A stretch of DNA of 60,294 bases from Candidatus Kaiserbacteria bacterium (lineage in GTDB: Bacteria; Patescibacteriota; Minisyncoccia; Phycocordibacterales; UBA2100). The position numbers were made by a program, and so were the translations under genes. Below, in pieces: positions 5,667 through 60,156 of the stretch. The stretch is from positions 1 through 60,294 of the forward strand of contig JACRFI010000002.1 of NCBI GenBank assembly GCA_016217965.1. Reading direction: 5' to 3'. Every line of letters starts with the position of its first letter. Position 1 is the first letter of the stretch. The notes under the pieces were generated by a model, which was given only the letters and a program-made list of their open reading frames with translations, was not told the origin of the DNA and searched no databases.

Positions 5667-8600
5667 ATGTTTGTTAAGTCTCATAGGGAGGGACATTTTT
5701 TTGGGCTGCTTTTGATGCTTCTAAGCATCAGCCTTTTGCTTGCACTGATTGTCGAGATACCTACTTCAAGAGCTGCGAATGCTCCAATGGGAGATCCAAG
5801 TCCTCAGTGCATGGGAGATTACTGCACATTCAAACCTTTTAAAGGGAGTCCGTATCTTACAGGTAGTTGTGCGGAACCTAAGCAAGGGGAAAAACCGACG
5901 AAAGATGGTCTCATTGGGAAACCATGTCAGGTCACAAAAAATGTTACGACATGCACCGGAAAGTGTCTTGGCGAGCAACCACTTTGCGGTAATGCTACTT
6001 CTTGCAATGGCGAAAAAACGAAAGATGCAAAAGAAACCGAAAAGAAAGCGATAGAGGACTATGAGGACAACCAACAGAAAGCATCGGAAAAACCCAAACA
6101 AGCACCTGAAAGTCCCAACGACTCTGGAGGAGATGCACCGAAAGAAGACTCACAGCAACCGGGCAACAAAGGTCCGCAAACAGGCATGGAGCCTGATTTT
6201 TCCAAATATGGAGAATGGTCGCAGCCGCCACAGCAAAGCCCGCCTTCGAACTCGCCGCCGAGTAGCTCTCCTGATTTTAAATTTAGCGATTTTGGGGAAA
6301 GAGGCAGCATTCAGCCGTCGCAAACGGATGAGAGGTTCAGTGATTTCGGCGAGGGTGGCAACCCTCCACAGTCGGGAAAAACGGGTCCGCAGCCGAGTAC
6401 GTTTGGAAATCCTCCGCCTCAGGGTAGTGGGGGCGACGATTCGCAGGGGGACGGTATTGGCGATAAGCTCGGCGAGATCGCATCCAAAGCAAAGGATGCG
6501 TTAAAAGATTCTGCGACGGATTTTGGTGAACTTCTCGATGACCTAAAAAAGTGGTTGGAAGATTTGAGAGAGCAGTTGAAAGGTGAAGTGGAGAAACCAT
6601 CACCGACTCCGTCGATTGGAGATGAGATTGCAAAGGGAGAAACAAAACCAGAGTTAGATCCCTCTGGGGCGAAACGAGAAAGACTGGATAAAGGCACGAT
6701 CAATTCTGGGAAAGGTGCCAATGTCTGCGCCTTGGGAGTTTGCGGGAAACAATTTACAAGAGATCAGTTGAATAATTTAAAAGGAAAAATTATTCCGGGC
6801 GTGAGGACATCAAAGTTTAATGAAGTTGAGGGAACTGCATATGGAGGAAAAAATAATCCGAATGCGTTTACGACGGCAAGTAAAGAGTTTCCGGCGGGGG
6901 CACGTATCTTGGAATATAACCTAAAGACAGGCGATACAGTGGCAGTGAGTGTCAACGATACAGGTCCATTTGTTGCGGGACGCTATCTTGATACAACTCC
7001 AGCGGGGTTGAACGCCGCAAAGTTGGGAGATTTAAGCAATCCCGATGTTGCATACATGGGGCAAACTGGACCGACGGGATATATGGGTAAATATAGCAGC
7101 TTCGATGACGCAATTGCTGCGTATGAGGCGAGACAAGGTGTTGGTAGTGGTCCGTATTCATCTCCTGTCGCAAGCACTTTGCCGCCATTCAGCCCGCCTC
7201 CGGTAAATTATCCCGGTCCATCGTTCACGAATGAGACTGCGCCCGATTCTTGGTATGACAATTCGGGATGGGATTATTCCGGTTTTGAGAATGTGACGGA
7301 TTGGAATGACTTGTCGAGCACCTATGTGCAGGAAGAAGGTTTGTATTCAGGGCAGCAGGGTGGGCAAGAGCTCGGGAGTGACCCCGATCCAGGATTTGAA
7401 AATGAGACAGGTGGCAATGATCCAGACCCGGGATTCGAGAATGAGGTGGATGGTAATGATCCTGATCCAGGATTTGAAAACGACCTGCCGCCCACTGTAC
7501 CTGGTGCCCGTCAGCTTGGCGATGAGTTGCCAGTCGAAGGCTTTAGACCAGACCCAGGTTTCGAGAACTATTTGGGCAATGACCCTGATCCCGGATTCGA
7601 AAACGAGCAGGTGGGTAATGATCCAGACCCTGGGTTTGAAAATGAGATAGATGGCAATGACCCTGACCCTGGTTTCGAGAACGATGCCGATTTTGACTCA
7701 GAGCAGGAACGGCTTAGTGAACTTGAACGAGCAGGAAAAGAGTTGCAACGACAGGAGGACGAAACCTTTGCAAGTACTATGGCTAGAAATCTCCAAGACT
7801 GGACGGAGCAAGCATTTGCGAGCGACATGGCGCGAAATATCCAAGAGTGGACAGAGACACGGCTTGCGGAAATACAGCAAGCAGCGATTGACAGACTGAG
7901 TGGGGACACGTGGGAGAAATATCTTGATTGGGATTATGGAGAGCCGACTCCGGAAGGCGATGATGTGGCTGAGCAACCGGGTGACCAGTTTAAGCAAAAG
8001 GATACGTTTGATCCCGAAGAAGAGCGCTTGGCAGAGCAAAAGAGCCTGGGAGATGAATTGCAGCGGCAAGCCGAAGAGAAAGCAGCAGAAAAAGAGAAGA
8101 GAGCAGAGGAGATAGCAAAAAATCTCGACAATGAAGATGTCGAGAGAGGGAAGGAAATGTCTCAACCGGAGGATGAGGTCGCGAAACAAGCACGACAAGA
8201 ACAGCAGAAGAAGGAAGAAGAGGAAAAGCGAGCCGCAAAACAGAAAGAAGTCGATGAGGCGATGAAAAAGAGCGCGGAAGCCGATAAGGTGAAAGAGGAG
8301 GCACAAAAACGCGCGGAGGCGGCTGATAAAAGGATAGAGGAAAGAAGCAAGGCACTAAGCGATGCCACGGAAAAGAAGAAGAAAGCAGAAGAGGCGGCGA
8401 AGAAAAGTGGTGGCGCACTTAAGCAAGCAAAAGATAATTTGAACGAGAATGTAAATGGCATCAAAAATCTAAAAGGTGCTGCTGAACGGGGGCTGCGTAC
8501 GGCGGAGGAGGTGGGCAAACAGACAGGAGACGAGGATCAGGTAAGAAGCAAAGCGCGTGCCGCGATAGGGCGAATTGACACGGACCCTCTTCGGGACGCG

Positions 8601-11423
8601 GCAGAAAGCCCATTGCTGTCCCAGAAGCAAAAAGATAGCCTTATTGGTACTGCTAATCGGGTAGACAGAAATAGTGAACGGATAGAAACCTTGGGTACGA
8701 ACGGAGGGTCTGTTGCCGAGATGAGAAGTCTCGCGAGTAGATCAATTGATGATTTGGGAGGGGCTCTTTCAACAGCGCAAGCTGGCTTAAAAAATGAAAA
8801 CACAACGCTCACAGTTCAGGCTGCAAGTGACGCACGGGCACTCAGTGTTGCCACAGCAGAATTTAACAATGCTGGGAAGTCACTGTGGTCCTCTGCAATC
8901 TCTGCAGATAGAGCATGGAGTTCCTACTATGAAGCGGACGAGGCATCATTGAATGCATACATAGAGTCGTGGAAAGTCTCGGGTGAGGGCTGGGATCTTG
9001 GTGACATACAAACCTATACTCCTGGACTTCCTGGATCGGGAGATATAGTGCCAGGATTTGTCGCTCCGCCTACCGACCAAGGGGATCTTCTTAGTATGGA
9101 TTCTTCTGCATGGAATTACGACGCTGAAGGTTGGGTCAAGACCGATTGGGATAGCGAGTCCGTGTTGAAGGTGACGGAAGATAAAGTATTCGAGTCCATA
9201 CTTGGAGAAGATACGCGAGCTTGGCAGCAGGTCGAACAAATGCTTGCTGATGAGCAAGAACAAGCCATACAGAGATTTCTTAAGCGATGGGAAAATGAAC
9301 CAGAAAACTGGGAAACAGCGGTAGATCCTTGGCGCCCGCTTTCCGCTGCAGCTCAGGAGAAAGCTGATGAATTGCAAAAAAAGATTGCTGCGGAGCATGA
9401 AAAGATACGAGCCGCTAAGGCGCGGCTTGAAGCGGGATATGGAACTGATTTTGAAAAAATCCCGACTCGAAAATTATTTGGGGAGTCAGAAGCGAACAAA
9501 TGGCGAGACGATCTCTGGACTGCACAAAAAGACTTGGCGCAATACGAAGCCGATCTAGCAAAGGTTAAGAGAGACGATATTGATGCCGGATACATTGACA
9601 CGGCAGGTGAAATGAACAAGGCGGATCTGGCTGCGCGAGATGCTCTCTCGGGGCAATTACGAGAGCACGAGGAAAAACTGGAATCGGTTATTGCAGCGGA
9701 GAGGCAAGAACGCAACAACGTAGTCCAGCAATATATAGATGACAAGCGTATGACGAGAGATATGTTAGAGGCTGTGACAAAGGAAAGCCGAGGAATAACT
9801 GAGGGAGCGTTAGGAAAGGATTGGGAGAAAGGGAAGTTTTTCGGATTTGCACGTGACCTGCAATATTTGCAATTAGCTCGGGAGGATGCGCTGATACGGT
9901 CCGACGGGTGTGGCGAAAATTGTGCGATAAAACTATATCCGGAAGGATCGCAGCCACCAACGCAGTGGGATAGGGCTGTTGCCGCAGTTAAGGCATGTTT
10001 TGGTTTCTGCGGTGATGCGACTCCAACTCAAATTCCGACCGAAGTTCCCACAACAGATTGGTCAGCGTATAAGGATTCAGATGTTCTATCGTACAGACCT
10101 GAATCACCGCTCGACCATGATATCCCTGGAGATGATGTTGCGGAGCAGCCAGGAAGAATTTTCGACGATGGACAGCTGGATCAACCGCATGATTATGATG
10201 GCGACGAAGAATATGCAAAGTTAAACAATGAGCAGAAAGAGAACGCGATACGTGCATTGCAAGATCAATATAAGGAAGCCTATGCCGAATTCAAAAATGC
10301 TGATCGTAACGATACGCAGAAATTGTTTAGCGCACTAAGAGCGCAAAATGATCGAAATGAGTTTTTTGCGAGGCTTCAGGAAGATCAAAGCTATCAAGAA
10401 TACATGAAGAATAGACCGATAACGGTGTCAGATTTGCCCGATGGTGATGACCTCGAGGACAATGAAATTTTCGGGGTTTCGTATAACAAAGAGAGTGCAA
10501 AATTAATGGAGGAATTAGAGACGTGGATCAAGGACGACTGGGATAAACATTACAAGGACGTACCGCCTGAACCTCCAACGAGATCTGTTGCTCCGTCTGC
10601 GACGAAAGTAGAGCCACCAGATCCGTTTCCCGCTGATGCGACCGATGTGCCGGAAAATGTAAAGAGGCCGCCGAAAGACGAGCCGGATTTTCCTGCGGAT
10701 GCGACTGATGTGCCGGAGAGCGTGAAGCGACCTCCGAAAGCCGAGACTCCTCCTCCTGCTGCCGCTAAAACGCCACCGACGCCAGGCCCTACAGCTTCGG
10801 GGCCCGGTCCAGGCCCTTCGGGAGGCAATGCAGACGCGAGTGGCTCTGGCTCTGGTTCTGGGGGAGGTCTTGGCGGAATCTTTGAAAAGCTGATGAATGC
10901 GCTCAAAGATTTCTTTAAACCAAAAGAGCAAAAGCAGAACCAGCAACAACAGCAAGCGCAGCAAGGGCAGCAGACGCCACCAGCGATAGCCTCTATCTTT
11001 GCGCGCCCACCGACGGTCAAGAAAGGTGAGAAGACACGTTTGATATGGGGAAGTGTGAACACAACGAGTTGCATCGTATTTGATGAACTTAGCAATGAGG
11101 TTGCGAGAGGCACTTCTGACGGAGCTGCGACAACGACCGCACTTTTTGCGACGACAAAATTCAAAGTTACTTGCCAGGGGAAAAATGGCTCCCAAGCCTC
11201 AGCAAGCACACAGGTAACTGTCACGGCAGCAACTCCTACGTTAAATAAAACAAAAACGAATACTACAACCACAAAAACCAACACAAACACGCAAACGAAA
11301 ACGCAAACTAATACGAACACAAACACAGAGACTCAAACAAATACCGGGGCCAAGAATAGTACTGACGAGATATGCCACCCATCACTGCCGTACGATGAAT
11401 TTGTCGCGTGCGTGCTTCGTTGA
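5667..11423 (+). CDS. giant (1918 aa) modular surface/secreted protein with an RlpA-like DPBB module
   Basis: Single uninterrupted ORF with these parts:
- signal anchor, aa 11-33
- 8-Cys head, aa 48-113
- P/S/G-rich linker
- aa ~385-456 EGTAYGG..TASKEF..VSVNDTGPFVAGRYLDTTPAGLNAAKLG, resembling the RlpA/DPBB signature
- 8x DPDPGFEN, aa 571-672
- long E/K/A-rich coiled-coil-like region
- several internal duplications
- beta-rich Ig-like ~75 aa followed by a T/N/Q low-complexity tail. Confidence 0.8.
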   Translation: MFVKSHREGHFFGLLLMLLSISLLLALIVEIPTSRAANAPMGDPSPQCMGDYCTFKPFKGSPYLTGSCAEPKQGEKPTKDGLIGKPCQVTKNVTTCTGKCLGEQPLCGNATSCNGEKTKDAKETEKKAIEDYEDNQQKASEKPKQAPESPNDSGGDAPKEDSQQPGNKGPQTGMEPDFSKYGEWSQPPQQSPPSNSPPSSSPDFKFSDFGERGSIQPSQTDERFSDFGEGGNPPQSGKTGPQPSTFGNPPPQGSGGDDSQGDGIGDKLGEIASKAKDALKDSATDFGELLDDLKKWLEDLREQLKGEVEKPSPTPSIGDEIAKGETKPELDPSGAKRERLDKGTINSGKGANVCALGVCGKQFTRDQLNNLKGKIIPGVRTSKFNEVEGTAYGGKNNPNAFTTASKEFPAGARILEYNLKTGDTVAVSVNDTGPFVAGRYLDTTPAGLNAAKLGDLSNPDVAYMGQTGPTGYMGKYSSFDDAIAAYEARQGVGSGPYSSPVASTLPPFSPPPVNYPGPSFTNETAPDSWYDNSGWDYSGFENVTDWNDLSSTYVQEEGLYSGQQGGQELGSDPDPGFENETGGNDPDPGFENEVDGNDPDPGFENDLPPTVPGARQLGDELPVEGFRPDPGFENYLGNDPDPGFENEQVGNDPDPGFENEIDGNDPDPGFENDADFDSEQERLSELERAGKELQRQEDETFASTMARNLQDWTEQAFASDMARNIQEWTETRLAEIQQAAIDRLSGDTWEKYLDWDYGEPTPEGDDVAEQPGDQFKQKDTFDPEEERLAEQKSLGDELQRQAEEKAAEKEKRAEEIAKNLDNEDVERGKEMSQPEDEVAKQARQEQQKKEEEEKRAAKQKEVDEAMKKSAEADKVKEEAQKRAEAADKRIEERSKALSDATEKKKKAEEAAKKSGGALKQAKDNLNENVNGIKNLKGAAERGLRTAEEVGKQTGDEDQVRSKARAAIGRIDTDPLRDAAESPLLSQKQKDSLIGTANRVDRNSERIETLGTNGGSVAEMRSLASRSIDDLGGALSTAQAGLKNENTTLTVQAASDARALSVATAEFNNAGKSLWSSAISADRAWSSYYEADEASLNAYIESWKVSGEGWDLGDIQTYTPGLPGSGDIVPGFVAPPTDQGDLLSMDSSAWNYDAEGWVKTDWDSESVLKVTEDKVFESILGEDTRAWQQVEQMLADEQEQAIQRFLKRWENEPENWETAVDPWRPLSAAAQEKADELQKKIAAEHEKIRAAKARLEAGYGTDFEKIPTRKLFGESEANKWRDDLWTAQKDLAQYEADLAKVKRDDIDAGYIDTAGEMNKADLAARDALSGQLREHEEKLESVIAAERQERNNVVQQYIDDKRMTRDMLEAVTKESRGITEGALGKDWEKGKFFGFARDLQYLQLAREDALIRSDGCGENCAIKLYPEGSQPPTQWDRAVAAVKACFGFCGDATPTQIPTEVPTTDWSAYKDSDVLSYRPESPLDHDIPGDDVAEQPGRIFDDGQLDQPHDYDGDEEYAKLNNEQKENAIRALQDQYKEAYAEFKNADRNDTQKLFSALRAQNDRNEFFARLQEDQSYQEYMKNRPITVSDLPDGDDLEDNEIFGVSYNKESAKLMEELETWIKDDWDKHYKDVPPEPPTRSVAPSATKVEPPDPFPADATDVPENVKRPPKDEPDFPADATDVPESVKRPPKAETPPPAAAKTPPTPGPTASGPGPGPSGGNADASGSGSGSGGGLGGIFEKLMNALKDFFKPKEQKQNQQQQQAQQGQQTPPAIASIFARPPTVKKGEKTRLIWGSVNTTSCIVFDELSNEVARGTSDGAATTTALFATTKFKVTCQGKNGSQASASTQVTVTAATPTLNKTKTNTTTTKTNTNTQTKTQTNTNTNTETQTNTGAKNSTDEICHPSLPYDEFVACVLR

Positions 11424-24287: not shown

Positions 24288-24533
24288 ATGCCGACACAAC
24301 CTCAGGTAACAATCTACACAACACCGACCTGCCATTTTTGCGGAGAAGCAAAGGGGTTTTTCCAAGAGCATAAGGTTGCATACACGGAGCACAATGTCGC
24401 GACGGATCTCGCTAAACGCAAGGAGATGATAGAGAAAAGCGGCCAGATGGGGGTTCCTGTTATATATGTCGGCGACCAGCTCGTTGTGGGGTACGACCAA
24501 GACAAGTTGAAACAGTTTCTCAGCATTCAGTAG
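24288..24533 (+). CDS. glutaredoxin-like protein (NrdH/YruB type)
   Basis: 81 aa. VTIYTTPTCHFCGEAK (CxxC) and GVPVIYVGDQLVVGYD. Confidence 0.85.
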   Translation: MPTQPQVTIYTTPTCHFCGEAKGFFQEHKVAYTEHNVATDLAKRKEMIEKSGQMGVPVIYVGDQLVVGYDQDKLKQFLSIQ

Positions 24534-24542
24534 AAATTGCTT

Positions 24543-24676
24543 GGATTGCGAATCTCTTTCTCGGCATAAATTTTTTGCCGTCGCTATCTGGCGCTGCTGC
24601 GCCAGCGCTCGGTCTCGGCCTCGTCAGGCCTGCGAAGACGGCAAAAAACTTACGCCTTCGACGAGTTTCGCAATCC
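24543..24676. repeat. branched-hairpin intergenic repeat, copy A1
   Basis: Outer stem GGATTGCGAAtCTC/GAGtTTCGCAATCC. Long stem GGCATAAATTTTTTGCCGTC/GACGGCAAAAAACTTACGCC. Inner hairpins CTGGCGC-TGCT-GCGCCAG and GGCCT-CGTC-AGGCC. The near-homologous copy is at 47051-47176. Confidence 0.8.
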
Positions 24677-24695
24677 TTAGTAGAGTAGTGTTGTT

Positions 24696-24767
24696 GCCCT
24701 CGTAGTTCAATGGATAGAACGAACCGTTCCTAATGGTTTGATGTCAGTTCGATTCTGGCCGAGGGCA
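24696..24767 (+). tRNA. tRNA-Arg (CCT)
   Basis: GCCCTCG TA GTTC AATGGATA GAAC G AACCG TTCCTAA TGGTT TGAT GTCAG TTCGATT CTGGC CGAGGGC A. Confidence 0.9.
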
Positions 24768-24795
24768 TTGAACAGCAGTGAGATGTCCTCGACCA

Positions 24796-24927
24796 GGAAG
24801 GGGGTCGGGGAACGGGAGTTCCCCGTGGAGGAAGGCAGCGAAGCGTTGGAAAACCGTGGGCGACCAAGAAAATAACGAGTGCAATGAGTATATTTTCTGA
24901 AGTACTCTTGTGGTGTTTCCAAAGTGC
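24796..24927 (+). repeat. tRNA-trailer element, copy R1 (candidate structured RNA)
   Basis: The ~60-nt core GGGGTCGGGGAACgGGAGTTCCCCGTGGAGGAAGGCAGCGAAGCGTTGGAAAaCCGTGGG starts 28 nt after tRNA-Arg. The same core lies 39 nt after tRNA-Phe. The closing strand GTGTTTCCAAAGTGC is displaced by a ~55-nt insertion. Confidence 0.6.
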
Positions 24928-25854: not shown

Positions 25855-25893
25855 CAAAGAGCAATGCGATTTTGGGGCGGGAGTCAGACTTTG

Positions 25894-25968
25894 GGAAGGG
25901 GTCGGGGAACTGGAGTTCCCCGTGGAGGAAGGCAGCGAAGCGTTGGAAACCGTGGGTTTCCAAAGCGC
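25894..25968 (+). repeat. tRNA-trailer element, copy R2 (candidate structured RNA)
   Basis: Same core as R1, differing by one substitution and one 1-nt indel. Hairpins GGGGAAC-TGGA-GTTCCCC and TTGGAAAC-CGTGG-GTTTCCAA. Confidence 0.6.
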
Positions 25969-38480: not shown

Positions 38481-39755
38481 ATGGAAAGTCACGCCCGCTA
38501 CCATGAGGCGATACGGTATCTCGAATCATTCGCTCGCGAGAAGGGTGCGCCGGATTACATGCGGGACCAGAAGAATCCCGCCGTGTATCTGAAGAGGATG
38601 AAGCGTTTGTTAAGGCTAGTTGGAAACCCTGAGAAGCATTTTAAGTTTGTGCACGTGACCGGCACATCTGGAAAAGGCACTGTTGTCTCGATGGTGCATG
38701 AATCGCTTCGTGCCGCAGGAAAGCGTGTCGGCAGCTTTACATCTCCGTACGTGGTTGCTGCGATCGAGAAAATCCAGGTGGATGATTTGTATATTTCTCC
38801 GAATGACTTTGCAGATATTGTAGAAGAATTGAAACCCACCATCGAGAAAGAACATCTGGAAGGAGCGTTCGGTAGCCCTACGTATTTCGAAGTCTTTTTT
38901 GCAGTTGCGCTCATCTATTTCAAACGCCGAAAATGCGAGTGGGTGCTTCTCGAGGTCGGCGCAGGGGGACGGTATGATGCGACGAACATTATCGAGAAGC
39001 CAGCTGTTACTGCAGTCACAAGTATCGATTATGACCACGTGCAAATCCTGGGTAAAACGCTCCTTTCCATTGCGGACAACAAAGCGGGAATTATAAAAAA
39101 AGGTTCAGCATTTTTTACTACCGAAAAAAGAAAAGCGCTTCTGTCGCTCTTTCGGCGCACTTGCCAAGGAAAGGATGCGGCATTCACCGCACTTCCTGCG
39201 GTAAATGATTATCAGGAAAATAATAAAACGTTGGCGAGAGCGATATGTCGAAGTATCGGCATTCCCGACACAGACATTGAAAAAGGGATACGCACAGCAA
39301 AGCTTCCGTGCAGGTTCGAAGTGATGGAGGCTCAGCCCCGAGTTGTTCTTGATGGCGCACACAATCGGGCAAAAATGCGGAGCACTGCGTCAAACGTGCG
39401 AGCGATCCAGTTTGGCAAGCTGCACCTCATTGTCAGTGTAAAAGACGACAAAGACCTTAGCCCAGTACTCGGCGAGATAGTTCCGCTTACAGACAATATC
39501 TATGTGACAGAGTTTTTCTCGCCAACTCTAAAGAGCGCGCGTCTTGAGGACATTGCGCGGGTTGCAACATCACTGGCAAAGAAAGGTACAGCAATACGTA
39601 TCGTGCCGAACGCTGCCGATGCATATGCAGCAGCGAGGGGTATTGCAAAGCACGACGATGTCATTCTTGTGACAGGCTCGTTCTATCTCGCGGGTGAGTT
39701 GCGTAAAGGTTGGTATTCGGAAGACTGGGTGCTCGAACACAGAAAAAGCTTCTAG
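38481..39755 (+). CDS. folC: folylpolyglutamate synthase / dihydrofolate synthase (Mur-ligase family)
   Basis: VHVTGTSGKGTV P-loop, EVGAGGRYDATN and DGAHN. The start was moved to the ATG at 38481. Confidence 0.88.
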   Translation: MESHARYHEAIRYLESFAREKGAPDYMRDQKNPAVYLKRMKRLLRLVGNPEKHFKFVHVTGTSGKGTVVSMVHESLRAAGKRVGSFTSPYVVAAIEKIQVDDLYISPNDFADIVEELKPTIEKEHLEGAFGSPTYFEVFFAVALIYFKRRKCEWVLLEVGAGGRYDATNIIEKPAVTAVTSIDYDHVQILGKTLLSIADNKAGIIKKGSAFFTTEKRKALLSLFRRTCQGKDAAFTALPAVNDYQENNKTLARAICRSIGIPDTDIEKGIRTAKLPCRFEVMEAQPRVVLDGAHNRAKMRSTASNVRAIQFGKLHLIVSVKDDKDLSPVLGEIVPLTDNIYVTEFFSPTLKSARLEDIARVATSLAKKGTAIRIVPNAADAYAAARGIAKHDDVILVTGSFYLAGELRKGWYSEDWVLEHRKSF

Positions 39756-39780
39756 GTGCTAGCTTTCAGCTTCTAGCTTA
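39753..39780. repeat. period-7 TAG array (reverse-orientation CTAGAAG family)
   Basis: taggtgc tagcttt cagcttc tagctta. The first TAG is the folC stop. The reverse complement matches CTAGAAGCTGAAAGCTAGCACCTAGAAG at 51206. Confidence 0.75.
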
Positions 39781-45841: not shown

Positions 45842-47014
45842 TTAGGGCAGCAGTGTCCTGAAACCGCTTTTTACTGAATCAATTGCGCGCGAGAGCACCT
45901 CGCCGAACGTCTCAGAAGGGCCAGCGTTTTCTTCGGCGTATCCCCACCTACACAGGCCGTATGCCACAGCCCACGTCGCATCGAGGCTTCCGAGGCGAGA
46001 GACACCGGAGGGCAGTCCTATCTGCGAAGGAAGTTTTAGCGTGGATTTTGCGACGTCCGAGACAAATTGCGAGCCGGCTCCGCCTCCGGTTATGACGATG
46101 CCCGCGGGGAGAAGGCGATGCCTGTTTATGGAACGAAGGTGTGTGTTAACAAGCGAGAACATTTCTTTGAGGCGGCCTGTTATCACGCTCGCCATCTTTC
46201 TGGGAGGAATATCACTTCCGGTGACGGCGCCGCGCTTCATCTGCTCTGCTTCGTGAAGTGGAAGTTGAAATGAGAGCGCAATGGCATGTGTGATATCGGA
46301 CGAACCGATGGGGAAGACTTTCATCGAGATGGGGACGTCGTTGTCATACACAATTATTGAGAGCGTTTCCGCGCCGATGTTCGCGAGAACCACTCCGGCA
46401 GTTTTCTGTGCTTTCGTCAGTGTGACGAAACTCGCGGCAAGGGGAGAAGCCATGAACCCCTCAACTTCGATGCCCGCGGATTCAACTGCATCTATCAGGT
46501 CATCGTGGTGCTGCGTGAGCATTGAGATGATAAGTGTGTCCACCGACAGCTTGGTTCCTTGTAGCCCATGGGGCCGTCCTCGTATCGCGGTGCCGTCTAT
46601 TCGGTACTCAAGCGGTATCGTGTGGAGGATAGTACGGTTTAGGAGCTTGGAGATGGCCTTCTTTTCGCTTTCGCGCAGGGCGCGCTCTATTTCGCGCTCG
46701 CTTGCTACGCCGCCGGATGTTGTGAGAGTGATATCGCCCGTCGAACGCAGCTCTTCAACAGATACGCCACCCATCGCGATGCGAGCGCTTCTTACGTTCA
46801 CTCTGGAAGCTTGGGCGGCGCGCCCCACAGCTTCTTTGATGCTTCGCGTTACCTCTCCTCCATCCACAATATATCCATGGCGCATGCCCTTAGATGCAGC
46901 AGAGCCAGTGCCAACGATGGACATCGGGAGGTCAGGCGAATCTGGTGCCGAAGCGATGACGACTTTCACGTGATGCGTGCCAATGTCAATTCCGGTATAA
47001 AGCCTCCGAGCCAT
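45842..47014 (-). CDS. ftsA: cell division protein FtsA
   Basis: 390 aa. The actin-like ATPase motifs TGIDIGTHHVKVV and ITGGGAGS. Lies upstream of ftsZ. Confidence 0.92.
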   Translation of the reverse strand: MARRLYTGIDIGTHHVKVVIASAPDSPDLPMSIVGTGSAASKGMRHGYIVDGGEVTRSIKEAVGRAAQASRVNVRSARIAMGGVSVEELRSTGDITLTTSGGVASEREIERALRESEKKAISKLLNRTILHTIPLEYRIDGTAIRGRPHGLQGTKLSVDTLIISMLTQHHDDLIDAVESAGIEVEGFMASPLAASFVTLTKAQKTAGVVLANIGAETLSIIVYDNDVPISMKVFPIGSSDITHAIALSFQLPLHEAEQMKRGAVTGSDIPPRKMASVITGRLKEMFSLVNTHLRSINRHRLLPAGIVITGGGAGSQFVSDVAKSTLKLPSQIGLPSGVSRLGSLDATWAVAYGLCRWGYAEENAGPSETFGEVLSRAIDSVKSGFRTLLP

Positions 47015-47050: not shown

Positions 47051-47176
47051 CACGGGACTCTTTCTCGGCATAACTTTTTTGCCGTCGCTATCTGGCGTTG
47101 CTACGCCAGCGCTCGGTCTCGGCGCCGTCGCGCCTGCGAAGACGGCAAAAGAGTTATGCCCTCGACGAGTTCCGTG
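47051..47176. repeat. branched-hairpin intergenic repeat, copy A2
   Basis: Same architecture as A1, with paired changes: CTGGCGT-TGCT-ACGCCAG, GGCGC-CGTC-GCGCC, and outer stem CACGGGACTC/GAGTTCCGTG. Its 3' 23 nt overlap the ybeY C-terminus and stop. Confidence 0.8.
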
Positions 47177-47552
47177 AGAAGATTTTAAGATATTTTGCTT
47201 CAAGTTGGTCCATTTTTTTTCCGTGAGCATGCCCTTTGAGATGGAGGCATGCATGGATAAATAAAAAAGCGGCGCGCTCATTCAGTGAGACATTGAATTC
47301 GCGGGCCTCGCGCTTTGTTTTTTGTAGATTCAATAGTATCTCGCCTTCGTCTTTTGCGTACGGGAAGGAAAGAACATTGGGCGAATAGCTTTTCTTTCTA
47401 TATTTTTTGTTCAATGCCGTTGCAAGAGAGTCTCCACACACGACGAGTGAAAGTGAATAGTGCTCTCCCAGTATTTTTTTTGCCAATGTTCCAAACGGAA
47501 CACGCGGCAAAGGGCCGCGGGTAGTTTTGTGTACATTGAACTCGAACGCCAT
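47154..47552 (-). CDS. ybeY: rRNA maturation endoribonuclease YbeY
   Basis: 132 aa. HACLHLKGHAH is the HxxxHxxxxxH zinc motif. The start overlaps the rpsU stop (TAATG). Confidence 0.82.
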   Translation of the reverse strand: MAFEFNVHKTTRGPLPRVPFGTLAKKILGEHYSLSLVVCGDSLATALNKKYRKKSYSPNVLSFPYAKDEGEILLNLQKTKREAREFNVSLNERAAFLFIHACLHLKGHAHGKKMDQLEAKYLKIFSRNSSRA

Positions 47553-49971: not shown

Positions 49972-50090
49972 AAAAACTCTTTTTCGGCGCAGGGTTTCCG
50001 TCGCACGGATATTTTTCTGCTGAAAAATTCCTCGAGCTCGCGCCGATCGCGCTCGCTAGGCGCCGTTAACCCTGCGCCTCAGCGAGTTTT
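49972..50090. repeat. branched-hairpin intergenic repeat, copy B2
   Basis: AAAAACTC/GAGTTTTT outer stem. GGCGCAGGGTT/AACCCTGCGCC stem. Inner hairpin GGAtATTTTTC-TGCT-GAAAAATTCC. Lies between the divergent lepB and pth genes. Confidence 0.7.
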
Positions 50091-50143: not shown

Positions 50144-50737
50144 ATGACTTGGGTCGTTGTCGGGCTAGGAAATCCGGGAGGGGAGTATGAAAATACGCGC
50201 CACAACGCTGGGCGTATGGCGGTTGCGCAATTCGTGAAGTCAAAAAAAGTTGGTGAGTGGAAAATTGATGCAAAAGCGAAAGCGCTTGTCGCGCGCGGGA
50301 TGATAGAGCGCTCTCTTGCGGTATTTGTACTGCCGGAAACGTATATGAATAAATCCGGGGGTGCACTTTTGAAGTTCGTGAAGAGCATGAAGGCAGCCGA
50401 ACACCTCGTCATTGTCTACGACGACCTCGATTTGCCACTCGGTTCGATGAAAATTTCCTATGATCGCGGCAGTGGCGGGCACAAAGGCATCGAATCAGTG
50501 ATGCGCGCGGTGAAGACGAAACGATTCTGGCGCATTCGAATCGGAGTTTCCGCGTCGACCGCATCTGGGGAGATAAAAAAACCGCTGGGAGAGAAAAAAG
50601 TGAACGATTTTATCCTCGATGTGTTCAAGCCGCACGAATTCGGAGCGCTAAAGCCCGTTTTCAAACGTGTCGAACATGCGCTCGAAACAATTCTGCTCGA
50701 AGGCGGAATGAGGGCGATGAATCAGTTCAATGGGTAG
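50144..50737 (+). CDS. pth: peptidyl-tRNA hydrolase
   Basis: The start was moved to MTWVVVGLGNPGGEYENTRHNAG. YMNKSG and GSGGHKG. Confidence 0.92.
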   Translation: MTWVVVGLGNPGGEYENTRHNAGRMAVAQFVKSKKVGEWKIDAKAKALVARGMIERSLAVFVLPETYMNKSGGALLKFVKSMKAAEHLVIVYDDLDLPLGSMKISYDRGSGGHKGIESVMRAVKTKRFWRIRIGVSASTASGEIKKPLGEKKVNDFILDVFKPHEFGALKPVFKRVEHALETILLEGGMRAMNQFNG

Positions 50738-50769
50738 CTTCTAGGTGCGAGCTTCTAGAAGCGAGCTTT
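50735..50769. repeat. period-7 TAG array (CTAGAAG family, reverse orientation)
   Basis: tagcttc taggtgc gagcttc tagaagc gagcttt. The first TAG is the pth stop. The array ends at the stop of the convergent gene 50769-51101. Confidence 0.75.
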
Positions 50770-52580: not shown

Positions 52581-53196
52581 ACTCACGTACCACGAGGGAG
52601 AATGCATACGCGCGAGCGCGGGGGACACAACATTGGTTCTCGGCCCCATCTCAAAAGCAAGCAAGAACTTTAAGCCGACAAATTTTGGTGCCGATGTCGC
52701 GTTCGTTTCTCTCAATCATCCCGACATGAACGGCGCAGCCGAAGCAAGCCGTGGAGAGAAGCAGCCGTTCATTATTTTGGGGCCTGGAGAATATGAAGTG
52801 AAAGGCATTACGGTAGCCGGATTTCCATCGAAATCGAAATATGGGGGCGAGGAAAAAATAAATACGGTGTACGCGATAGATTTTGACGGCCTATCTGTTT
52901 TTTACCTCGGCGCTATTTCCGAACCTGAGTTGCCCAAGGACCTCTTGGAGATGGATGCCCCGGATATCGTCATTCTTCCGATAGGGGGCGGCGAAGTGCT
53001 TTCTCCAGCTGATGCCCAAAAACTTGCGGTGATGCTCGAAGCAAAGATCGTGATTCCTGTCCACTATGATGCGAAGACATTGAAGGTCTTCTTGAAGGAG
53101 GCAGGAGATGAGGCCGTGAAGCCAATCGAAAAGCTTACGTTGAAACCGAAGGACATTGTGGGGAAAGAGAATGAAGTCGTCGTTCTTAGCGTCTAG
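52576..53196 (+). CDS. MBL-fold metal-dependent hydrolase (UPF0173-like)
   Basis: 206 aa. The beta-lactamase-fold pattern is visible (DVAFVSLNHPDMNG; ILPIGGG; VIPVHYD). The assignment has moderate support. Confidence 0.55.
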   Translation: MILTYHEGECIRASAGDTTLVLGPISKASKNFKPTNFGADVAFVSLNHPDMNGAAEASRGEKQPFIILGPGEYEVKGITVAGFPSKSKYGGEEKINTVYAIDFDGLSVFYLGAISEPELPKDLLEMDAPDIVILPIGGGEVLSPADAQKLAVMLEAKIVIPVHYDAKTLKVFLKEAGDEAVKPIEKLTLKPKDIVGKENEVVVLSV

Positions 53197-53220
53197 CTTC
53201 TAGGGGCTAGTTTCTAGTTT
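53193..53220. repeat. period-7 CTAG array
   Basis: ctagctt ctagggg ctagttt ctagttt. The first TAG (53194-53196) is the stop of the MBL-fold gene. Confidence 0.75.
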
Positions 53221-59169: not shown

Positions 59170-59282
59170 CTCCGATCGGCATGCGTCTCGCGGGTCGCCT
59201 CTCTAGATGCATGTCTGCCTCCCTATAACTTATCCACACAGTAGAGTCTCAGGCGCGCGTGGACTGCCGAGAAGGGGATAGA

Positions 59283-59684
59283 ATGAGAGCACTTAGGAAC
59301 CATTTAATTTATTTTTCTATGAGCGCACGGTTTGCTTCGATAGTTGCCGCAGGAACACTGATACTTCCGGCAATCGCTTCTGCCCAGACTCTTCTCAATA
59401 CGTTGGCGCTCATCAATACGTTCCTCAACGCCCTCATCGGGCTTTTCATCACCCTCGCTATCGTCGCGTTCTTCTGGGGGCTCATCAAGTACCTCGTCAA
59501 CATGAACAACGAGTCGGCGAAGGAGGGCATTCAGATAATGCTCTGGGGCGTTATTGCTATCTTCGTCATGGTTTCTATCTGGGGAATCATTCGTCTCCTC
59601 CAGGCAACGTTCCGCGTGACTTCAACTGACCCGGTCATTCCGAAGGGTATACAGATAAATACGGGAGGGACAGGTTTCAATTGA
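59283..59684 (+). CDS. TrbC/VirB2-like pilin-type small membrane protein, paralogue 4
   Basis: The start was placed at the ATG after GAAGGGGA. Signal ...LILPAIASAQ, two TM helices, and the motif FVMVSIWGIIRLLQ shared with paralogue 2. Confidence 0.6.
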   Translation: MRALRNHLIYFSMSARFASIVAAGTLILPAIASAQTLLNTLALINTFLNALIGLFITLAIVAFFWGLIKYLVNMNNESAKEGIQIMLWGVIAIFVMVSIWGIIRLLQATFRVTSTDPVIPKGIQINTGGTGFN

Positions 59685-59720
59685 TGATCGAGTTCGTCAC
59701 TAAATCTCAAAGCGAGCGTA

Positions 59721-59820
59721 GTGCGAGAAAAGCTTCTGAAGGGGCTCTGCAGGCCGGCGGGCCGAAGCCCGAGCGATTTTTCAGCAGAAAAATTGCGTAC
59801 CCGGAAGAAGCTTTTCGCGC
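59721..59820. repeat. branched-hairpin intergenic repeat, copy B3 (reverse orientation)
   Basis: On the reverse complement: GCGAAAAGCTTCT...AGAAGCTTTTCTCGC outer stem, CAATTTTTC-TGCT-GAAAAATCG hairpin, and CGGGC-TTCG-GCCCG hairpin. Lies between pilin paralogues 4 and 5. Confidence 0.65.
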
Positions 59821-59838
59821 GCCTAGTGAGTAACACCT

Positions 59839-60156
59839 ATGGATGCTGGTGTCACATTGATGCAGAGGATAGACGAGCTGATACTACAGCCGACCATCTA
59901 TCTCATTTTGACGGCCGGGCTACTTGTCTTCATCTACGGGCTGGTCCAATTCATTTGGCATGTTCGCGAGGGCACGGATCATAAAGAGGGGCTTAACCAC
60001 ATGTTGTGGGGAATTATCGGGATGTTCATCATGGTGTCCGTGTACGGCATCATTAGCCTCATCATCAACACTATCGGCTCAGACCCAACCAATCCCGATG
60101 TGAGCCGCATCAATAACGTTACGCCAGCTTCAGGATTTTTCAGCCCTATCAAATAG
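59839..60156 (+). CDS. pilin-type small membrane protein, paralogue 5
   Basis: 105 aa. Two TM helices separated by HVREGTDHKEGLNH. The motif FIMVSVYGIISLI is related to paralogues 2 and 4. No obvious cleavable signal. Confidence 0.5.
   Translation: MDAGVTLMQRIDELILQPTIYLILTAGLLVFIYGLVQFIWHVREGTDHKEGLNHMLWGIIGMFIMVSVYGIISLIINTIGSDPTNPDVSRINNVTPASGFFSPIK

Follow-up and report, generated by a model that had tools for sequence, protein, structure and literature searches.

Two branched hairpins, A1 and A2, were studied in a 60,294-nt stretch of DNA from Candidatus Kaiserbacteria bacterium (assembly GCA_016217965.1, contig JACRFI010000002.1, positions 1 to 60,294), which was assembled from a groundwater metagenome and is called the window below. 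A1 and A2 are members of a family of multi-copy, structured extragenic elements that is widespread in Patescibacteria (Candidate Phyla Radiation, CPR). As far as the resources searched show, the family has apparently not been described so far. All copies consist of a nearly invariant 57-nt three-way-junction core on top of a basal stem of approximately 21 bp.

The A1/A2 pair

A first-pass annotation of the window had placed A1 at 24543-24676 and A2 at 47051-47176 and described them as collinear, mostly identical copies. Both were present at these coordinates; they were 90% identical over 117 nt, and 87% identical when aligned over 161 columns. In the window, a 17-mer taken from the core had exactly two occurrences, against 0.18 expected with up to three mismatches. 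The folding energy of A1 and A2 was −66 to −77 kcal/mol on both strands (z −7.6 to −9.9), and none of 200 dinucleotide shuffles was as stable.

The paired differences that had been noticed in the two inner hairpins were confirmed, both in hairpin P2 (CTGGCGC-TGCT-GCGCCAG in A1, CTGGCGT-TGCT-ACGCCAG in A2) and in hairpin P3 (GGCCT-CGTC-AGGCC in A1, GGCGC-CGTC-GCGCC in A2). The outer stem also differs as reported (GCGAATCTC/GAGTTTCGC in A1, ACGGGACTC/GAGTTCCGT in A2), but these differences need not be compensatory substitutions by descent, because the outermost 6–11 bp are specific to each copy. In A1, only the inner CTC/GAG of the outer stem is common to A2 and to B1, a distant relative in the window; the remainder is copy-specific. 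The annotation had missed a fourth helix, P1, which at 20 bp is the longest of A1 and A2 and lies between the outer stem and the junction. The parts of the two copies, with scores of the covariance model described below, are as follows:

24543..24676, + strand: A1, whole branched hairpin (112.1 bits)
24543..24556, + strand: A1 outer stem, 5' arm GGATTGCGAATCTC, paired with 24663-24676 (GAGTTTCGCAATCC)
24560..24563, + strand: A1 5' basal CUCG motif, with the 3' counterpart UUCG at 24657-24660
24563..24582, + strand: A1 P1, 5' arm GGCATAAATTTTTTGCCGTC, paired with 24637-24656 (20 bp, two A:C mismatches)
24580..24636, + strand: A1 57-nt core, in the order GUC, GC, UAU, P2, C, GC, UCGGUCUC, P3, UGCGAA; P2 pairs 24588-24594 with 24599-24605 (loop UGCU), and P3 pairs 24617-24621 with 24626-24630 (loop CGUC)
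47051..47176, + strand: A2, whole branched hairpin in the ybeY-ftsA spacer (116.4 bits)
47084..47140, + strand: A2 57-nt core; P1 pairs 47067-47086 with 47141-47160, and the basal CUCG motifs lie at 47063-47066 and 47161-47164

Distribution of the family

One genome per prokaryotic species was scanned for exact matches to a 20-mer in the 5' half of the core. There were 12 matches, seven of them in whole elements and the other five bare chance matches. The seven true copies were all in metagenome-assembled genomes (MAGs) of Patescibacteria, labelled Kaiserbacteria, Parcubacteria, Paceibacterota, Saccharibacteria or 'Patescibacteria group'. Metagenomes were scanned with a degenerate pattern based on the 3' half of the core, which yielded 58 loci, mostly from groundwater, with 55–56 distinct copies. 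Since each scan constrained one half of the core and the other half was conserved too, the conservation does not result from the search patterns.

From 53 copies a covariance model was built. It recovered additional, divergent copies in the same loci, which kept GUCGCU, the UGCU loop, AGCGCU, UCUCG and CUGCGA. Approximately one copy beyond the seed match was found per 55 kb of the fetched loci, which suggests roughly 10–30 copies per 1-Mb genome. In the window, the model detected two distant members besides A1 and A2. These, termed family B, follow the same three-way-junction plan, and both have P2 as UUUUUC-UGCU-GAAAAA:

49974..50090, + strand: B1, in the divergent lepB/pth spacer (24.9 bits, E 4e-5)
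59714..59829, − strand: B2 (30.5 bits, E 1e-6)

In the source metagenome, unique flanks of the element had a depth of 39–48x, whereas the depth of the core summed to approximately 2000–2700x. Several contigs of 39–48x, the same depth as the window genome, terminated inside the element, and one Logan contig terminated just beyond the ybeY stop codon, within A2. The excess depth of the core and the breaking of contigs in the element indicate that the source genome holds more copies than are seen in the window. One contig of this metagenome, aligned to the window at 47118, joined a P2 of the family B type (UUCUGCUGAAAAA) to a P3 of the A type, so that A/B hybrid copies occur in the same community. 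One contig carried two tandem elements (joint going back 120 nt).

Architecture of the element

The family plan reads, from 5' to 3': a stop codon, 0–9 nt, G-CUCG, P1, GC-UAU-P2-C-GC, UCrrUCUC-P3-UGCGAA, P1', R-CUCG-CUU. The consensus of P2 is CUGGnnn-UGCU-nnnCCAG and that of P3 is GnnnC-CGUC-GnnnC. P1 was mostly 19–23 bp long, with a conserved top (yUUUUGCCGUC/GACGGCAAAAr) and a conserved base (GCGG/CCGC); the approximately 8 bp between them were free in sequence and kept their pairing. The GUC at the inner end of P1 was invariant, even where its partner GAC had changed to GCC or CAC. A helix 4 (UCG/CGA) seen in single-sequence folds was unsupported in the alignment, with one pair being G:C in 27 copies and unpaired in 26, and no covariation.

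CUCG was found at the base of P1 on both sides at any stem length from 19 to 36 bp: where the 5' distance was x (19 to 35), the 3' distance was x or x+1. In the folded strand, the CUCG motifs lie opposite each other in a 2x2 loop of pyrimidine mismatches, which has two-fold symmetry and closing C-G pairs (C-G / U·C / C·U / G-C). A sub-family (L016, L020, L028, L065) had a second CUCG loop 4 bp below the junction, and in two loci (L049, L052) P1 was only 6–7 bp long. A1 and A2 follow the family plan with an additional outer helix that encloses the CUCG loop.

Covariation and selection on the fold

From the paired differences the first-pass annotation had concluded that a folded nucleic acid, RNA or DNA, is under selection. 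A1 and A2 alone are insufficient for this claim, because template switching in quasi-palindromes also yields paired changes. The wider family supports it. In an alignment of 53 distinct copies from other genomes (38 pairs, with shuffled and slid-register controls), 91% of cells were paired, compared with 72% in shuffles, and 25 of the 38 pairs showed double-sided changes. The covariation score was 0.458, against 0.124 ± 0.008 in shuffles, and was reached by none of 500 shuffles. When registers were slid by 1–3 columns, only 37–46% of cells were paired and the covariation fell to 0.06–0.09. RNAalifold independently predicted P1, P2 (with the GC/GC extension) and P3, with compensatory changes in 22 of 30 predicted pairs.

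At orthologous sites after groEL, rnc, khpA and a divIC-like gene the element was kept and the stems differed, the middle stems being unrelated at the groEL, rnc and divIC-like sites. After khpA, a compensatory change had occurred in place (CACATG/CATGTG in L017, CATATG/CATATG in L069).

A neutral, decaying repeat in which paired changes arose by chance or template switching, with no selected structure, could in principle account for the approximately eight paired differences between A1 and A2. It does not account for the retention of three helices, 25 covarying pairs and an invariant unpaired junction in more than 55 copies from distinct lineages, nor for the loss of pairing in slid registers. 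The family-wide covariation and the conservation of the junction effectively refute this explanation, which we regard as extremely improbable.

Position relative to genes

A1 lies in sense orientation behind a glutaredoxin gene, starting 9 nt past its stop codon and ending 18 nt before a tRNA gene. A2 is antisense to both of its neighbours, and the final seven codons of ybeY, together with its stop codon, lie in the 3' end of A2. The genes concerned are:

24288..24533, + strand: glutaredoxin gene (PF00462, E 3.8e-19), whose stop codon precedes A1
24695..24768, + strand: tRNA-Arg (CCU), directly 3' of A1
45842..47014, − strand: ftsA, with its start codon 37 nt from A2
47154..47552, − strand: ybeY, whose C-terminal SRNSSRA and stop codon are encoded by A2

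GC skew was positive in every 6-kb segment of the window (1-60294), and the + strand is probably the leading strand throughout. Given this skew, A1 and A2 share their orientation relative to replication despite having genes on opposite strands.

Among the family loci, 38 of 50 upstream open reading frames (ORFs) were on the strand of the element. Where the flanking genes were in tandem, 20 copies were sense and six antisense, the latter mostly belonging to sub-families with inverted repeats. The strand of the downstream gene relative to the element was split 28 to 20. In convergent spacers, the element abutted the stop codon of its sense gene in seven of nine cases. The stop codon (UAG, UAA or UGA) stood 0–9 nt before GCUCG and at times overlapped it.

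The upstream genes were unrelated housekeeping genes. Pfam identified GroEL, RNase III (rnc), KhpA, L31 (rpmE), MurJ, a cytidylyltransferase, DivIC-like and DsbA-like proteins, and the C-terminal sequences of other upstream ORFs point to rpoD, metK and gyrA. At the khpA site the element was followed by GAGG and the start of the next gene (N-terminus MIHFH...), which we take to be trmD; if so, this element would be intercistronic in a conserved operon. In several genomes (L007, L008, L068 and also L070) the element came directly after the stop codon of rnc. Given the double-stranded stem of approximately 21 bp this adjacency is suggestive, and it may be a coincidence. In locus L031, two elements were arranged tail to tail, 5 nt apart (2355-2472 on the + strand, 2478-2595 on the − strand), just past gatB, in the manner of an inverted BIME pair; only the copy adjoining gatB was in sense orientation.

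Several common roles of intergenic hairpins were considered and rejected. The downstream gene was convergent in 13 cases and the upstream stop codon was always adjacent; a riboswitch or other 5' leader is excluded, because the downstream gene occurs on either strand. No terminator-like site was found at A1 or A2, and the 3' flank of the element (RCUCGCUU) offers only 2–5 U, 5–6 nt from the stem, which does not correspond to an intrinsic terminator. Nor was a promoter found at A1 or A2; the apparent −35/−10 boxes after some copies are better read as the Shine-Dalgarno sequence of the next gene (GAGG).

Mobility

One sub-family of approximately 152 nt (L018, L019, L029, L030, L048 and relatives) resembled miniature inverted-repeat transposable elements (MITEs), with the core inside terminal inverted repeats of 17–19 bp (GAGCATGTTTGAAAACC/GGTTTTCAAACATGCTC). 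It was found at many loci in either orientation. Among its five cleanly delimited copies, TA was present on both sides in two and missing from one side in three. Some upstream ORFs end at a TAG stop codon that this sub-family creates.

MITEs have terminal inverted repeats that are conserved from copy to copy; such repeats were found in this sub-family and not in A1, A2 and B1. The latter three share an outer frame (CTCTTTyTCGGC...GCCyTCrrCGAG, extending to GCCyTCrrCGAGTTT), outside which they have copy-specific complementary flanks of 11, 8 and 5 bp, respectively. The short flanks, GAA on both sides of A2 and TT or CTT for A1, are too short to be judged as target-site duplications.

The order pth-lepB-hisS-like-S21-ybeY-ftsA is maintained in two syntenic relatives (L072, L073). 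Between ybeY and ftsA, these relatives have spacers of 59 and 82 nt with no match to the model, compared with 139 nt in the window with A2; their pth-lepB spacers were 79 and 110 nt long, again with no match, compared with approximately 253 nt in the window with B1. As these relatives are distant from the window genome (YbeY 58–60% identical), the element may instead have been lost from them. The 'empty' ybeY-ftsA spacer of L073 contained, at approximately 6815-6857, a simple hairpin, GCGCTCG-(17 nt)-CGAGCGC, the arm of which equals the conserved 5' flank of the family, GCGCUCG.

In six of eight aligned homologs YbeY had (A/Y)GF at or near its end, whereas the window protein runs ...IFSRNSSRA, with SRNSSRA derived from A2. 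The best explanation for A2 is an insertion event in which the 3' end of ybeY was rewritten. No alleles with an empty site were seen in the source metagenome. The mobility of some element lineages is demonstrated in part. The copies in the window belong to a dispersing lineage, that of A1, A2 and B1, which occurs in either orientation.

Possible transcript-level and DNA-level functions

The first-pass annotation had left open whether the folded molecule is RNA or DNA, and both fit the wider family. Our tentative preference, to which we attach slightly less than an even chance, is that the element acts in the transcript as a REP-like module (REP, repetitive extragenic palindrome) for 3'-end or intercistronic processing or stability. 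It would act in cis, as an mRNA segment that either follows a stop codon or separates two cistrons. A conserved protein may dock at the invariant three-way junction, and the long helix with its symmetric basal loop may be a site of processing or protection, for instance by a dimeric double-strand-specific nuclease such as RNase III. Transcript 3' ends would be defined or stabilised and neighbouring cistrons uncoupled, as with REP/BIME hairpins and the RNase III signals of phage T7. An action in RNA is suggested by sense-oriented copies that abut stop codons, by the placement between cistrons, by the invariance of the unpaired junction across classes, and by core-bearing contigs in two RNA data sets, a rhizosphere metatranscriptome and an RNA-seq run of wastewater. 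The helix of 19–23 bp and the placement between cistrons fit an RNase III processing signal (at least approximately 20 bp of double-stranded RNA), with cleavage being putative. A stronger version, a functional RNA class specific to Patescibacteria in which the junction and the CUCG/CUCG loop would direct 3'-end formation or cistron separation as a protein-recognised 'punctuation' after stop codons, seems on balance doubtful, and a new ribozyme in its place is less likely.

Several observations weigh against an action in the transcript. The core-bearing contigs in the RNA data sets were few, short and undirected, and three groundwater metatranscriptomes contained none, so that the RNA support is thin; 1% samples of two very large raw-read runs did not contain the element either. 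Selection on a helix as RNA alone usually leaves far more room for G:U than for A:C. Isolated mismatches on the sense strand numbered 12 G:U versus 29 A:C, or approximately 11 versus 16 after discounting copies related by descent (copies without inverted repeats), and with related copies discounted there was no G:U excess on either strand. P2 had no G:U in 159 covarying cells, and the helices were almost perfectly Watson-Crick. This wobble test is not decisive, because G:U could be removed by hairpin-templated correction of the DNA even if the element functions as RNA. In addition, no U-tract terminator was found at A1 or A2, and the orientation is antisense to the genes at A2, at L023 and in one copy of the L031 pair. 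The bound protein and the cleavage are putative. The shared orientation of A1 and A2 relative to replication, with genes on opposite strands, fits a replication-linked DNA mechanism as well.

An action purely at the DNA level is a serious possibility, if a less probable one. The element would then be a palindromic repeat like REP/REPIN, PATE or MITE sequences, forming its hairpin in single-stranded DNA, for example in the lagging-strand template. It would be recognised by an enzyme acting in trans, an HUH/Y1 transposase (like RAYT or the TnpA of IS200/IS605) or another recombinase, with the CTCG beside the hairpin as cleavage or target tetranucleotide. The perfect arms would be kept by the requirements of the enzyme and by hairpin-templated correction, and effects in RNA would be incidental. 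The near-equal rarity of G:T and A:C mismatches in almost perfectly Watson-Crick helices is consistent with this reading, as are the direct repeat of CTCG at both hairpin bases, the nested CTCG...CTCG around a minimal unit in L016, L020, L028 and L065, and the short-stem units of L049 and L052. It is further favoured by the filling by A2 and B1 of spacers that are short in relatives, the copy-specific inverted flanks of A1, A2 and B1, which are expected for insertion into palindromes, the sub-family with inverted repeats and TA flanks, the BIME-like tail-to-tail pairs and the breaking of assemblies at the element. The common GC-skew orientation of A1 and A2 points the same way; across the family, skew on the sense strand was positive in 38 of 55 loci, a count that is confounded by gene strand and includes too few discordant cases. 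On the other side, housekeeping families were the most frequent among 96 neighbouring proteins, and the 25 most frequent Pfam families included no transposase, HUH, RAYT or reverse transcriptase; viral contigs, plasmids and phages had no matches. Copies of one genome have unrelated middle stems and thus do not come from a recent amplification of one master copy. Different species carry the element at orthologous sites with the unpaired junction unchanged, and this would need either a strongly conserved partner or long-lasting purifying selection. Nor does replication orientation alone predict that the element closely abuts the stop codon of its sense gene, as it also does in convergent spacers. 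A discrete RNA of approximately 115 nt acting elsewhere, either a small RNA with its specificity in the variable stem or a self-cleaving ribozyme with GUC and CGAA at the junction, is improbable. It would be in keeping with the invariant junction nucleotides, among them the GUC kept despite its altered partners, and with the hypervariable middle of P1 between conserved ends, and the symmetric base motifs could mark excision sites. Yet the variable part lies inside a perfect helix, unsuited to a guide, and a direct reading showed no hammerhead core (CUGANGA, GAAA). Rfam held no matching ribozyme or small RNA, no discrete RNA was seen in the RNA data sets examined, and no promoter-like site adjoins A1 or A2.

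Other features of the window

The window encodes lepA, a divIC-like gene, the glutaredoxin, several tRNAs, ftsZ, ftsA, ybeY, an S21 gene, lepB and pth. Rfam detected six tRNAs at the gathering threshold and ARAGORN seven tRNA genes. The nearest named relative of the YbeY protein was from 'Parcubacteria group bacterium' (59% identity), and an exact look-up of the glutaredoxin protein found no record. Two small ORFs bordering B2, at 59259-59684 and 59839-60156, had weak similarity to type IV secretion pilins (PF18895).

Three other kinds of repeat were observed. A 57-nt repeat with 95% identity between its copies (24796-24852 and 25893-25949) lay approximately 30–40 nt downstream of tRNA-Arg and tRNA-Phe and contained the hairpin GGGGAAC-(4 nt)-GTTCCCC. 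A 33-nt repeat rich in AGCTTCTAG was present in three copies (39747-39779, 50736-50768 and 53188-53220; 70–79% identity). Tandem repeats with periods of approximately 39, 63 and 12 nt occupied 7374-7723, 10626-10751 and 11238-11338, in the first fifth of the window.

Significance

Patescibacteria make up a large share of bacterial diversity and have genomes of approximately 1 Mb, and their gene expression is almost unstudied. A 57-nt junction that is near-invariant across CPR classes and recurs in tens of copies per genome after housekeeping genes implies a conserved partner, a protein or enzyme, serving a process so far undescribed. Should the element act in RNA, it would offer a handle on how transcripts are ended, cut and stabilised in CPR bacteria, and a new family of structured RNA for Rfam. 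If it acts in DNA, it would represent a novel kind of mobile hairpin whose conservation pattern, an invariant apex on a free stem, is unusual. In practical terms, the element breaks CPR metagenome assemblies and can be used as a lineage marker.

Comparison with known systems

The first-pass annotation knew of no named family with this architecture and had proposed a search of Rfam. At the gathering threshold only tRNAs were detected in the window, and no named family emerged from Rfam 15, plasmid and phage records or the literature. E-value scans of Rfam 15 with A1 and seven loci with typical copies gave only chance matches, namely miRNA-like hairpins at 14–25 bits (gathering thresholds 80–112) and RT-3 at 20.6 bits (threshold 40.5). 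Neither blastn against plasmid and phage records nor a scan of viral contigs produced a match, so that a phage or plasmid origin was rejected, and a full-text literature search found nothing relevant to the element.

Hammerhead ribozymes combine a three-way junction with the core sequences CUGANGA and GAAA and with a U followed by an unpaired H17. The element has GUC and CGAA, but the strand between P2 and P3 is UCrrUCUC rather than CUGANGA, and with no Rfam match it was not assigned to the hammerheads. Integron attC sites, which fold as single-stranded DNA, are likewise found directly 3' of ORFs in fixed orientation, with structure conserved rather than stem sequence. They have conserved, inverted core sites at the base, R'' (RYYYAAC) and R' (GTTRRRY), and a variable apex, whereas the element has direct CUCG repeats at the base, no GTTRRRY and an invariant apex; its upstream genes are core housekeeping genes and not cassettes. 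It is not an attC site. PATEs derived from IS200/IS605 share with the element a hairpin with flanking tetranucleotides as potential cleavage or target sites, and possibly the orientation relative to replication. The element differs from them in being a single symmetric hairpin without distinct left and right ends, in copies that are not near-identical, and in that no TnpA was found among its neighbours.

Correia elements (CREE), ERIC/IRU and other MITEs are long-hairpin repeats of similar size (approximately 100–150 nt). Correia elements are flanked by TA target duplications and are cut by RNase III, and long-hairpin MITEs are co-transcribed with genes. MITEs have conserved termini and a drifting interior; in the element this is reversed, with an invariant apex, a stem and termini that are variable or copy-specific, and a symmetric basal loop. 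Also unlike MITEs, the element mostly occurs as fixed, sense-oriented copies at orthologous sites.

REP, BIME and REPIN sequences of Enterobacteria and Pseudomonas are, like the element, multi-copy, extragenic and hairpin-forming, concentrated at the 3' ends of genes and between cistrons, and REP/BIME sequences sometimes occur as inverted pairs. REPs are transcribed within mRNAs and protect the upstream mRNA. They are simple imperfect palindromes of 20–40 nt with a 5' GTAG; their conservation is limited to a species group, and they are linked to a RAYT gene. In contrast, the element is 115–135 nt long and has a three-way-junction apex conserved across CPR classes and CUCG flanks, and no RAYT-like gene was seen among the 25 most frequent Pfam families of its neighbours; without a short palindrome with 5' GTAG, it was not counted as a REP. 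The R1.1-type RNase III signals of phage T7 are repeated, intercistronic sense hairpins with a helix of approximately two turns and an internal loop. They lack a three-way junction and have no homology to the element in sequence or architecture, so the resemblance is functional only. By analogy, it is to REP/BIME sequences, Correia-type elements and these T7 signals that the element appears to be most alike in function.

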